A DNA stretch of 44,716 nt from Escherichia coli (GTDB taxonomy: Bacteria; Pseudomonadota; Gammaproteobacteria; Enterobacterales; Enterobacteriaceae), in NCBI RefSeq assembly GCF_048403405.1, contig NZ_CP183137.1, one strand, 5' to 3'. Below, in pieces: positions 39,001 to 44,716 of the stretch. Numbering within the stretch: position 1 is the first letter of the stretch; every line of letters starts with the position of its first letter. The position numbers were made by a program.

Positions 39001-42000
39001 TCTGAGCTTCCGTTACCTGGACCACAAAACGGGAGAAACGGCGACGGAAACGCTGACACAGCGGGAGCTGGTCGCGAGGCTGAAACAGCACATCCCGGAG
39101 AAGTTTTTTAAGATGGTGAGATACTTCGGGTTCCTTGCCAACCGGGTGTGTGGAGAGAAGCTGCCGCAGGTGTACCGTGCTCTGGGGATGGATAAGCCGG
39201 AACCAGTGGCGAAAGTGTGCTATGCACAAATGGTGAAACAGTTCCTGAGTCGTGACCCGTTCGAATGCGTGCTGTGTGGCGGCCGGATGGTATACCGCCG
39301 GGCCATTGCGGGGCTGAATGTATCAGGGCTGAAGAAAAACGCGCGGGATATCAGTCTGCTGAGGTATATGCCGGCCTGACACAGGCTAAGTGTGCCCGGG
39401 AATCGGTGCAGGTATAAAAAACAGCCTGTTACGGTATAAAAATCGACCATGCAGAGAGAGAAACCACCGGAGTGGAGGGAAAAGCAGAAAGGCTCACGTG
39501 GCATAAGGCGTGGACAGCGGTATCGTCTGGTTTTTCAATTTCCTATACGTGAACCAGTGGCGAAAGTGTGCTATGCACAAATGGTGAAACAGTTCCTGAG
39601 TCGTGACCCGTTCGAATGCGTGCTGTGTGGCGGCCGGATGGTATACCGCCGGGCCATTGCGGGGCTGAATGTATCAGGGCTGAAGAAAAACGCGCGGGAT
39701 ATCAGTCTGCTGAGGTATATGCCGGCCTGACACAGGCTAAGTGTGCCCGGGAATCGGTGCAGGTATAAAAAACAGCCTGTTACGGTATAAAAATCGACCA
39801 TGCAGAGAGAGAAACCACCGGAGTGGAGGGAAAAGCAGAAAGGCTCACGTGGCATAAGGCGTGGACAGCGGTATCGTCTGGTTTTTCAATTTCCTATACG
39901 TGAACTGGCATCTTGGATTTCGGTTGTTCTGCTGATTATATACCTATCAGGCAAGAATCACGTGCTTACAGCAGCTTTTCTCTGCTTTGCATGGACAGCA
40001 TTCTGGGTTCTTTTCCTTTTACATTATTTCCCAAAAGTTTTCTTTATTCTCGATCGTCAGAGTCTGCTCAACCTCATGGAGGCCACCAAAGACTCACCAG
40101 ATGTAAAGCAGGAGCTGCTTAACCGCCTTTTTTCCGGAAAAAGAATGACCGGGCGGGATGAAATGGATATCTGCCGTCTTCTGAGAAAAAATGAAGAAGA
40201 AAAAATCCGTCAGAGTGAACTGAATATCATCAGGAATTTTATTGATGAACAGCAGTTAACGAATAGTGATATTCCGAAGAAAAGTACGGTCCCAAATGAA
40301 GATAAAAAAGGCATAAGATGATATGAAATTAATAACCAGGCAAGCAGAGGATGGCGTGGTTTCATCCTAAGATTGATAGGGGTTAACCTGTAAGATAAAA
40401 GGACCGTGTTTACACGACGTCTCTGAAGGGCTTCGTTTGGGAAACGGACAATATCTAACTGACGAGGAAATTAAATAAGGGTTTAAAAATTAACGCACCA
40501 TATATTATACACAGTATATAACGATTCAGATATCGTCACCAGGATATGCCGCGTCAGCGGCATGGAAGGCGGCATTCCGTTGTTACATATGACACAGGAA
40601 TAAAACCGCCGAAGCCCGGCGTAAGCCGGTACTGATTGATAGATTTCACCTTACCCATCCCCAGCCCTGCTAAGCCATACCCGTTTTCAGCCATGACAGA
40701 GCTTCTGTGCGCGGTCGGAGTGGTCCCGACGAGGGTTTACCCGAAGTCGGGGCGTATCTCCGCGTTAGCGGGCCGAGAGGGCCGCTTACGAGCGTGTATT
40801 CAGTACGTCCAGCCAGAAGACTGACAGCGATGATGCTGCTTAGTTACAACATTCATAATTAAAAGCGATGTTGTTCCCGCCCTTTGGGCGGGGGCGGCCT
40901 CGCTTTTCAGTTATGAGGGGTAGGCACGGTGCTGCGTTTGTGTGGTGTTTTTATTCCTGATGTCTTTTTGCTGTGGTTTCAGAACGGTGAGGTTCGGGGC
41001 CCGCGCGTCAGCGTGGGAGGTGCATATCAGTCTGTCCACAGGACAGGCATTGAACAGGTTTTCTTTTTAAATGGAAGTAATTAAGTAGTTTAAAGGAAAT
41101 ACAGTACTGGAGTTTAAAAGAAACATTGCACCCTGTAACGCCTGCGGCTGGCGCTTTATAGCATTAACGGTTGTAACCTTATGGAGAAGTCCCTTGCAGT
41201 TAAATGTGGATAAACAGAATTACCCGTCTGTGAGACGTGTTTTGCGTGAAAAACAGGGGGAGCATGATGAGCCGGAAGGCAGATGATGAGGCTGTTTTTT
41301 GTGTGCTGTGCTGCTTTTTTGTGCGTCGCCGGGCTTCAGACGTGCGGAAGCCTCCGGCGCAGGCCGGATTATTCAGATGAGGTCAAACTCAGGGTGAGGC
41401 AGTGGCCAGCCGTGTGTAGTTGTTGTTCCGCGACATTATCATGCGTTCCTTCACGCGACGGTCGATTTCGCGCTTCACGGCCTCCAGGCTTCCGCGGAAA
41501 CGCCCTTCCGCGATTTCACGTGTCAGCTGCCGTTTCACCAGGGTGACAATGTCCTGACGGGTCCTGCCTGCATCGCGGCGCGCACGGGCACGTTTCATGC
41601 CGTGGGACTTAAGCTCTGCCTGATAACTGCGGAAACGCTCGCGCACAAAACGCCAGGCCCTCGCTATCAGTTCATCCATACCCAGCGCATCCATCCCCTG
41701 CTTTTTGCGCAGCCTGTTTTCCCATTCCACGCGGCTGCGGCGTGCGGAAGCCACTGCCTCTTCTGAGATATCGAGTGAGTCAAACAGTGCCGGCGTGAAC
41801 GTGATGTCGGTCGGGATGTTACAGCCAATTGTCGGGTCGTATTCCGTCTGGTAGGTTATCAGCCCCAGCTCAGACAGGAACTTCAGGGCACGGGTGGCAC
41901 GGGTGATGGAAAGTTTCCCGGCCTCAGACTCCGTCGCCAGTCCGCACTCAATGGCCAGCGTGGTGATGGAGCACTGCACGCGGTTGGCCAGCGGGTCATA

Positions 42001-44716
42001 GTGGAAACACAGCCCCTGCAGCAGCGCATCAATCGCCCGGCGGCGCAGCACCGGCGGCATACGCCGGCGCAGGCCGCGCGAACGGGCATACGCCACATGC
42101 GCGGCAAAATCAAAACGGGAGGTGAAGCCCACGGCCTTTTCCATCAGTTTTTCGCAGAACTTCAGCGTTCCGGCATCTTCACGGGGTGTGAACACCGGAT
42201 TCGGGTTCTTTACCTGACGGTATGTGCTTTCAGTGAATGAGGTCTGGTTCAGGGCCGCCACAAGCTGTCGCTTATGGCGGGAACAGATTGCCGTGCGTTA
42301 ATGCACTGCGAAGGGTTGAATCTCTGACACGGTTTCATATATACTTATCCCGTATTCTGTGAGGCCCCCATTATCTTTCAGTGATTCCGCCAAGTTTCGA
42401 TGAAAGATTATGGGGGTTTTCCTTTATGGTCTTCTGAAACTTTTTTCAGCCTTCCGGCCCCGGCAAACAGCCGTCGTTTCTGCCATACATCCTGAATGCC
42501 TTATGGCGCATCCTGCCGTTTTCTGACTTTCCGGATCGTGAGGATCCCAAAAGTCACTGCATAACGATCCGCAATATACCCCTTTTCCACCGCTTTGAAA
42601 AGCCGACACGATTTCTCTGATTTACCTGGCCTCTCATTAACCACCTAAAAAGCGTCGTTTTTTTGAACTGTGTCAAAAAAATGAACAATTTCACAAACGA
42701 TCTTTTATGCTGCTTTTTTCTTCTTTTCCAGTAGAAGAGATCGCCGAATTTTTTTAAACGATCTAATATCCCGCACACAATATCAAATATAGAATAATAT
42801 TCTGTCTTATCAGATATAACGATCTATTCAACTGCTTATCTTCGCTCTTGCCACAGATACATCCTTATGTAATATATTTTCCAGCCATTAATCCTGTTTG
42901 CAGGAGTTGTCGGTTTTCGCCCGCCTCGAAACCGTCCACAAGGCTTACAAGAGTGCGTAAATCATGTGCCTGTCAGAACTGCAGGCCAGGCTGAACGTGG
43001 GTCAGCCGCTGTTTCCGACACATGCTTTATGTATTCGCCGTTCACAACAACATCGAAGCCCCCCTGCGGGGATCGATTTTCGCGGAGCGTTCCGGATTTT
43101 GAATATCAGTGAATTACATCAACGCAACTGGTATCTGGCACAGTACATCCCTACCGGCAAAAACCGCGAACATCTCTTTTCCTGGCTTTCCGAACAACAC
43201 GTCCTTCCCTGGACACCCCTGATACTGAAAAAGGTCCGCCGCACGGATAAAGTCTGTGGTTACCGTCGACATATACACGCCGTGTTTCCCGGTTACTTTT
43301 TCCTGAAAGCAGACCCCGAAAGCCACAGCTTCACTCACCTTCGCCGTCACAGTGCCTTTCTGGACTTCGTGAAAATGGCCGGTGAAATCAAAACCGTCAG
43401 GGAGGATATCGTTCAGTCTTTGATGAAAGTGTACCCGGATCCTGCGCTCAATCCGGCAGCCAGGGAGGAGCTGGATGCTGCCTCCACCCTCTGGCTGACA
43501 AAAGCGCGTTACCAGTACCTCCTCCGGCTTGATGCCCAGCCTCTGCCGGAGTCGAGGATCGCCCTGCTCCTGCACCTGGTATCTGATGACGGAGCGTTGA
43601 CATGAAAATTGCTGTCTTCATTTGACGACTTTCCCGGCCTTTATGGCCGGGCTTTTTTTCCCCATCTTTTCCCCAATGCCCGGCACCGGTGACACCTGCG
43701 TGTACGGAGAGCGGCTGCCGGGCATTTTTTTTCAGGACATCGTTATGACCATTCAATCCCCGGAAAACCCTGTCATTCAGTTACTGGAGAATATGCTTGA
43801 AGCGCTCTCCACCTCCCCGGACAGCATCAACAATGAACGACGTCGCCGGCGCTTCCTGCTGAACTGGCTTGATTCCGCCCGACAGATGAGTGAGTTCAGG
43901 GGGATGCCTGAAGAGTTCACCGCCCTGCGCAAACTGCTGGCCACCAATACGGACATACCGGTAGAGAACACGCTGAAATCACTGCTGGAAAGTGGCCACA
44001 ACGCAGCACTGTATGACCTGTACCGCTTCCGAGCAGCGCTTGCCACGTGCAGGAGTCTGGGATGGCAGATTGGCACGTGCGCATGGAATGACCAGTTACT
44101 GAGTGAGACACTTTCCCGCGCACAGACCGGGAAACGTCATATCCTGCAGCTGAACAGCACCGGGGACACCTTTTCCACCACGGGCAGAATGATCAGACCG
44201 GTGGCATTTTCATTAATCCATCCGGCCACCATCAACACGTCTGAGGTTGAAGAGATATTCCGGGATGAAGGTTTTATGCTCGCACACGGGCGCGAATGCA
44301 GTCTGAACGGCAGCGGCAGAAATATGCTGTCACGCATTCTTCATGTGGGCCATTCAGGTTTAGCGGAAGAGGAATGGGGCATGGACAACAGTCTGCTTTT
44401 ACACTGAAATACCGGGACAGCCACAACGGCAGCCACTCTCCGCTGACTTTTTTTCGCAAATCGCGGTTTGCTGATGTGGATGTCCCATTTTTGATTATCC
44501 GTCCTCTCCGGTTGTCATAAGGCGCATTCCGGCGTGAGGCTTCTGTTGTTATCATCCCCTCCTGCAGACATCCCCTTGTCTTCTGATGACTGACGATATG
44601 CTTCTTCTGACAATTAAAGAAGCGGAAGCTTCACGCCATAATGTTGTTTGACTGACCTGCCACAGGAGGAAAAATGACACTGACGTTACTTACCGCGTAT
44701 AACGCACCCTATCTGG

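Follow-up and report, generated by a model that had tools for sequence, protein, structure and literature searches.

A probable IncK2/Z mosaic replicon combining I-complex control with an IncFII-type initiator and origin in Escherichia coli

Results

Genes and origin at the replication locus

We analyzed a stretch of 44,716 nt of Escherichia coli DNA (RefSeq assembly GCF_048403405.1, contig NZ_CP183137.1), referred to below as the window, with a focus on the plasmid replicon that it carries. The original prediction had described this locus as a RepFIIA-type replicon without copB, in which a repA1 gene and its coupled leader peptide are accompanied by a consensus DnaA box in the expected origin region. 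All three elements were recovered at the locus, whose core consists of the following features:

41389..42261, minus strand: repA, replication initiator of the IncFII family, 290 aa, GTG start (Pfam IncFII_repA; NCBIfam TIGR03474)
42249..42338, minus strand: repB/repY leader-peptide open reading frame (ORF), 29 aa, overlapping the GTG start of repA by 13 nt
41214..41388, minus strand: CIS-type spacer from repA to the origin, homologous to R100 by alignment
41030..41213, minus strand: IncFII-type oriR with a DnaA box, a conserved RepA-binding stretch and AT-rich TTTAAA repeats (~41120-41061), aligned with R100

The product of repA was assigned to the incFII_RepA family at the equivalog level (TIGR03474, 563 bits for a cutoff of 447). 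Its amino-acid identity is 99% to the RepA of pO26-CRL-125 and 86.6% to RepA1 of R100, and comparison with the 343-aa Rep proteins of R64 (RepZ), p3521 or pCT yielded 24% identity over 100 aa only. The locus thus encodes a 290-aa FII-type RepA, and the 343-aa RepZ/RepA-type initiator of I1/B/O/K1 plasmids was not present in this protein comparison. Downstream, a perfect DnaA box (TTATCCACA) was found at 41205-41213 on the minus strand, 175 bp beyond the repA stop codon. The 44.7 kb of the window hold just one other perfect copy, and in the alignment with R100 this box falls on the DnaA box of oriR.

Mosaic structure of the replicon

The window was compared block by block and with blastn to six reference plasmids: R100, R64, p3521 (IncB), pCT (IncK1), pO26-CRL-125 and pMS7163B. 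Nucleotide identities changed sharply along the locus:

42960-42431, upstream block: p3521 (IncB) 96%, pCT (IncK1) 92%; R100 no match; pO26-CRL-125 92%, pMS7163B 97%
42430-42345, antisense target block (86 nt): I-complex references 87-92%; R100 78%; IncZ references 90-94%
42344-42238, repB to the start of repA: I-complex references ~80%; R100 no match; IncZ references 97-100%
42222-41389, repA body: I1/B/K1 no match; R100 86%; IncZ references 99-100%
41388-41024, CIS and origin: I1/B/K1 no match; R100 88%; IncZ references 96%
41023-40506, beyond the origin: I-complex references 94-96%; R100 87%; IncZ references 95%

Two boundaries delimit the segment that is related to R100 and to none of the I1/B/K1 plasmids:

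42222..42237, minus strand: left recombination junction at the 5' end of repA; I-complex homology stops at 42237 and R100 homology begins at 42222 (blastn end points and alignment)
41020..41026: right end of the segment that is of FII type only; the DNA of 41023-40506 is common to I-complex plasmids (94-96%) and R100 (87%)

The alignment places the left crossover within repA, at about codons 8-13, and the N-terminus of RepA is therefore I-complex-like while the remainder is RepA1-like. Indeed, codons 1 to ~8 resemble those of I-complex initiators (VAALNQTSF versus VAGLKNTSY) and the protein becomes FII-like from about codon 14. Over its 2.4 kb, the replicon is 95.7% identical to pO26-CRL-125 (blastn).

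By sequence comparison, then, the FII type is confined to the repA body, CIS and oriR, and the entire control region is of the I-complex type (IncI1/B/O/K/Z). We conclude that the locus is very probably (probability of about 0.93) an IncK2/Z (IncZ-type) replicon, in which an I-complex control cassette has been joined to an IncFII-type repA body, CIS and oriR, with no CopB in the circuit. An FII-type initiator in place of the 343-aa one is the trait that sets the K2/Z subgroup apart within the I-complex. The subgroup has been delimited by a rep coding sequence with >95% nucleotide identity to pO26-CRL-125 (Zhang et al. 2019, PMC6361801), and the repA body of the window is 99% identical to that plasmid. 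IncZ-type mosaic replicons are an already described kind, recognized since the early 1990s, and biologically the locus is nothing new: in PMC5466382, Praszkier et al. 1991 are credited for the mosaic relationship of FII and B/K/Z replicons, and pO26-CRL125 is known to carry the IncZ replicon of pIE545 (PMC3817090).

Leader RNA and antisense RNA

The components of I-complex replicons are repA, the leader gene repB and the antisense RNAI (PMC10286972). The control region of the window presented the counterparts of these elements together with candidate promoters:

42274..42424, minus strand: repA mRNA leader, full-length match to Rfam RF01087 (PK-repZ, the pseudoknot of the repZ regulatory region), all 150 model positions, 161 bits for a gathering threshold of 44 (E=4.7e-37)
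42365..42416, minus strand: stem-loop I (SLI), the RNAI target, with loop 5'-UUGGCGG-3' at 42393-42387
42255..42280, minus strand: stem-loop III, which buries the GUG start of repA (42261-42259) in the predicted fold
42352..42421, plus strand: predicted RNAI (Inc RNA) antisense gene of ~70 nt, a hairpin followed by UUUU, with putative ends
42316..42345, plus strand: promoter-like site for RNAI inside the repB coding region (TTGAAT, 18-nt spacer, TATACT)
42573..42601, minus strand: candidate promoter of the repB-repA mRNA (TTTTCA, 17-nt spacer, TATATT)

The minus-strand leader was predicted to fold into stem-loop I, a small stem-loop II and stem-loop III (z=-4.8). Across six I-complex replicons, 94% of the cells in the three stems were paired and four pairs presented compensatory changes, as compared to 39-49% of paired cells in slid controls; stem-loop I by itself reached 91%, with three compensated pairs. 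Stem-loop III pairs CCGCCA in its 5' arm (42280-42275) with the start region of repA (GUGGCGG). Ten of its 11 pairs were invariant across the six plasmids, as was the segment CCGCCATAAGCGACAGCTTGTGGC. The hexamer UGGCGG of the SLI loop (42392-42387) is complementary to the same CCGCCA, which makes the two sequences the predicted partners of a proximal pseudoknot. The SLI loop motif UUGGCGG, the CCGCCA...GUGGC segment and the start of repB were likewise invariant in the six sequences. The geometry of the leader ORF was also shared by six I-complex plasmids, including pMS7163B, pO26-CRL-125, p3521, pCT and R64: all encode 29 aa and overlap repA by 13 nt. No similarity was detected between this 29-aa leader and the 24-aa Tap of R100.

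A folding check of the antisense RNA, as the original prediction had called for, yielded an RNAI hairpin of -33.5 kcal/mol (z=-4.7). We placed the start of RNAI from the position of its promoter-like site, the hexamers of which were conserved in all six I-complex sequences that we aligned. The candidate repBA promoter recurs in R64 with both hexamers unchanged and a spacer that is again 17 nt long, although overall identity there is only 65%. Two minus-strand ORFs in this region, of 74 aa (42554-42778) and 61 aa (42424-42609), were not retained as genes: neither matched a family and both are unannotated in every relative.

The segment complementary to RNAI differed at 8 to 14 of its 70 positions from five references (pMS7163B, p3521, R64, pCT and pO26-CRL-125), with 14 differences from pO26-CRL-125 and eight from pMS7163B. 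The incompatibility specificity of the replicon may therefore differ from that of the IncZ references. IncK1 and IncK2 have been reported to be compatible with only 5 nt differences (PMC10724649). The differences of the present allele exceed these five, which suggests that its specificity is not predictable from the IncK2/Z label and that the allele may define an incompatibility specificity of its own.

Proposed control circuit

These elements suggest a circuit that we modeled by homology to ColIb-P9 and IncB pMU720, where the mechanism was shown experimentally. Transcription of the repB-repA mRNA would run leftward, with the conserved TTTTCA-17-TATATT site at 42601-42573 as its probable promoter, and stem-loop III would hide the GUG start of repA. 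Ribosomes translating the 29-aa leader repB would unfold stem-loop III, and the freed CCGCCA just 5' of the repA start could then pair with the SLI loop (UGGCGG), forming a pseudoknot that switches on repA translation. A constitutive RNAI of ~70 nt (plus strand, ~42352-42421) would bind stem-loop I and stop both repB translation and pseudoknot formation, so that RepA synthesis would drop as copy number rises. Finally, RepA would act in cis at the FII-type oriR, jointly with DnaA at the TTATCCACA box. In the ColIb-P9 and IncB systems, as reportedly worked out by Asano and Mizobuchi in 1998 and by Wilson, Praszkier and Pittard in 1993-97 (cited in PMC10724649 and PMC10286972), leader translation opens stem-loop III, a pseudoknot between loop I and CCGCCA activates rep translation, and RNAI prevents the leader from being translated and the pseudoknot from forming.

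Several points weigh against this reading of the locus. For the present allele, the ends of RNAI, the start of the mRNA and the pseudoknot are predictions from homology and folding, and the mechanistic details draw on the Rfam family description and secondary citations. Moreover, the pseudoknot partners never vary in the six sequences, and covariation therefore neither supports nor refutes their pairing. Control by antisense RNA alone, as previously suggested, would be part of the picture: negative control through the antisense RNA is retained, and the positive pseudoknot element that the sequence points to had been overlooked.

Carrier plasmid and distribution of the replicon

The window was found to be 99.97% identical to the E. 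coli plasmid pCREC774-3 (NZ_CP183144.1, 123 kb), which combines an I-complex backbone with a CTX-M-14 module (blaCTX-M-14) and an IS91-bounded virulence and defence region. The replicon provides the sole rep gene of this plasmid. Its 2.1-kb stretch from 40900 to 43000 is present with at least 99% identity in at least 79 public plasmids of PLSDB. Among the carriers of the identical stretch, pEC9682-2 is the one for which we read the typing, and MOB-suite assigned it to IncK2/Z, MOBP and MPF_I. The near-identical replicon of pMS7163B was reported to be essential by TraDIS (transposon-directed insertion-site sequencing; PMC10286972).

A gene of the ProQ/FinO family (FopA type) lies 3-4 kb past the origin in five of five relatives (pEC9682-2, p3521, pMS7163B, pCT and pO26-CRL-125). 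Searches of the window and of all of pCREC774-3 for a ProQ/FinO (FopA) homologue were negative. In an IncI1 plasmid, FopA binds the Inc RNA and makes Inc-repZ pairing sevenfold faster (PMC7491321). Since pCREC774-3 has no FopA gene, control by "antisense RNA alone" may be truer here than in its relatives, unless the host ProQ substitutes for FopA.

A GATC array and the possibility of additional control

Between the replicon and the neighboring gene traB, we identified an array of Dam sites:

42534..42824, no strand assigned: GATC-rich and AT-rich intergenic array with seven Dam sites

Nowhere else in the window are GATC sites as dense: the array has seven sites in 330 bp, for a window mean of 2.0 per kb, in DNA of 32-34% G+C. 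The sequence AACGATCT occurs three times at an exact spacing of 61 bp (42696, 42757 and 42818) and a fourth element, TAACGATCC, is located at 42565. All seven GATC sites are kept in the IncK1 plasmid pCT, and a comparable cluster is found in the stretch of R64 that is 65% identical. It is conceivable, if doubtful, that this array forms an epigenetic switch in which Dam, together with Lrp, SeqA or another protein, ties the expression of traB or repBA to the replication or methylation state. Such a device would be comparable to the control of traJ on F-like plasmids. The motif AACGATCTTTTA may resemble the GATC boxes of pap. The window offered no internal reference for such a box, as the stretch in front of the gene for the PapB-family regulator in the fae-like operon (30300-31400) contains no GATC.

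More broadly, the replicon may be of the IncZ type and yet be controlled by more than RNAI, with Dam, SeqA or Lrp acting at the GATC array, or a host ProQ-type chaperone standing in for FopA, to modulate repBA or traB. The density, the 61-bp phasing and the conservation of the GATC sites in pCT and R64 would be in line with the first possibility, and the effect of FopA on Inc-repZ pairing, together with its absence from pCREC774-3, with the second. However, the B/K/Z relatives are too alike (88-97%) for GATC conservation to count as independent evidence, and AT-rich intergenic DNA containing GATC could equally serve the traB promoter alone. Nothing relevant turned up in a literature search for links between IncI1 traB or repZ and Dam, GATC or Lrp, nor was any link of Dam to I-complex rep or traB found. 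We regard additional control of this kind as unlikely.

Absence of copB

The claim that no CopB-like ORF lies upstream of the leader was borne out by every search that we conducted. With tblastn under permissive settings, the 84-aa CopB of R100 presented a best match of E=0.84 in the whole window, and within 42262-42960 no match fell below E~98. In a Pfam scan at E<=10, none of the nine longest stop-to-stop frames of 42240-42980 matched a family, and the CopB of R100, used as a positive control in the same scan, matched PF10723 with 115 bits. These frame-wide searches accordingly yielded no copB homologue, be it with a non-canonical start or in a different frame. There was no similarity to R100 upstream of 42222 by blastn with 7-nt words, and no CopB homologue was found on the whole of the near-identical plasmid pCREC774-3. 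The I-complex control system never has CopB (PMC10286972, PMC6361801), which indicates that the absence of copB is the norm at this locus and not a loss.

Alternatively, the locus might have been a genuine IncFII (RepFIIA/R100-type) replicon from which copB was deleted, with CopA acting alone and a raised copy number, as in copB mutants of R1. The FII-type RepA and oriR agree with such a history, as does an antisense hairpin that is distantly CopA-like (78% identity to R100 over the 86-nt block). But the Rfam CopA model scored 32.4 bits on the locus, under its gathering threshold of 60, whereas PK-repZ reached 161 bits; the leader is a 29-aa RepB/RepY and not Tap; similarity to R100 ceases upstream of 42222; and the region 42431-42960 is 96% identical to IncB p3521, without a deletion scar. 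The alignments refute this scenario, and we consider it extremely improbable. Thus, of the description as a RepFIIA-type replicon without copB, the missing copB and the FII-type repA, CIS and oriR stood, but the control region is of the I-complex type and copB was not lost.

A standard I-complex replicon (IncB/O, IncI1 or IncK1), with a 343-aa RepZ-type initiator and an iteron origin, is just as implausible: the control region, the traBC-pil-tra backbone and the MOBP/MPF_I typing are all I-complex, but the comparison of RepA proteins refutes it, since the 290-aa protein shares 86.6% identity with R100 RepA1 and only 24%, over 100 aa, with the Rep of R64, p3521 or pCT, and the repA body and CIS-origin blocks have no match in R64, p3521 or pCT.

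Neighboring genes and flanking regions

The genes next to the replicon are transcribed away from repA, as originally noted, and both lie on the plus strand:

43099..43605, plus strand: traB, NusG-family paralogue and I-complex transfer activator, outside the replicon; longest ORF from 42964
43745..44407, plus strand: traC homologue, transfer regulator, 220-aa ORF, 38% identical to R64 TraC (E=2e-45)

The first of these had been presented as a divergent NusG/RfaH paralogue. Its membership in the NusG family and its divergent orientation were confirmed (Pfam NusG, 24 bits, just over threshold), but an identity as RfaH was ruled out: the RfaH models scored 39 bits for equivalog cutoffs of 124 and 144, and the protein is an orthologue of TraB, 65% identical to TraB of R64 and 99.5% identical to its homologue in p3521. 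The order of rep and traB-traC-pil, with traB divergent from rep, is the same in R64, p3521 and pMS7163B. The traBC genes encode transfer activators that are needed for conjugation of pMS7163B (PMC10286972). By analogy, TraB and TraC of the window would activate the pil/tra transfer genes; they have no role in replication and are neighbors, not parts, of the replicon. The annotated start of traB varies among records: p3521 has a 213-aa version that begins with the ATG at 42964, and pCREC774-3 and pMS7163B have one of 168 aa that begins with the TTG at 43099. The shorter form is favored by an alignment with the 177-aa TraB of R64.

On the other side of the replicon, a further candidate site was found beyond the origin:

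40840..40854, minus strand: Ter-like site of the Tus-binding type, GAATGTTGTAACTAA, ~350 bp past oriR, in the segment common to FII and I-complex plasmids

It is the single match to the Ter consensus, for 0.07 expected. A "ter" is listed among the parts of I-complex replicons (PMC6361801). The I-complex flank ends at ~40506 and IS91-associated DNA lies beyond it. There, positions 39200-39905 form a perfect tandem duplication (period of 351 bp, 2.0 copies, 100% identical) that takes in the 3'-terminal part of the gene for an IS91-family transposase (38171-39379) as well as the neighboring element end.

Farther away, the annotation of pCREC774-3 indicates at ~33150-35060 a gene of the Pycsar-system effector family followed by a gene for a nucleotide-binding-domain protein, a candidate anti-phage defence pair that sits between remnants of IS91 and of the Tn3 family. 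At ~18000-30650, the same annotation lists a fimbrial operon of the F4(K88)-like fae type together with genes for a PapB/FocB-family regulator, an EAL-domain protein and an S6-family (SPATE) peptidase.

Discussion

The main value of these results is a correct annotation. Automated pipelines give just "incFII family RepA" for this initiator, a label that invites a misreading of the locus as a RepFIIA replicon lacking copB. Reading it as IncK2/Z explains the absence of copB, the RNA that determines incompatibility, and the disagreement between IncF-style and I-complex typing (PMC5466382). The plasmid family is clinically relevant, as illustrated by blaCTX-M-14 on the near-identical pCREC774-3.

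Compared with the IncFII plasmids R100 and R1 (copB-copA-tap-repA1-oriR), the general logic is alike, since an antisense RNA blocks the translation of a leader that is coupled to repA. In contrast to these plasmids, the present locus lacks copB, tap and a promoter regulated by CopB, and has a predicted pseudoknot activator in their place.

The resemblance to ColIb-P9/R64 (repY-repZ-Inc) and to IncB pMU720/p3521 (repB-repA-RNAI) is the reverse. Their control parts are kept here, and the antisense RNA, the loop UUGGCG, the 29-aa leader, stem-loop III, the pseudoknot partner and the overlap with the start codon are all conserved, whereas the initiator and the origin are unrelated at the DNA level. 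The neighboring TraB and TraC are homologous to the proteins of R64, in the same gene order, and traB points away from rep in both.

The closest known systems are the IncZ and IncK2/Z replicons of pIE545 (M93064), pO26-CRL-125 (NC_022996) and pMS7163B (CP026855), with which the locus shares its mosaic architecture and its junctions; the repA body is 100% identical in nucleotide sequence to that of pMS7163B. Besides the RNAI-complementary segment, the locus differs from these references on the origin side, where an IS91-associated accessory region takes the place of the usual yacAB toxin-antitoxin and ProQ/FinO genes.

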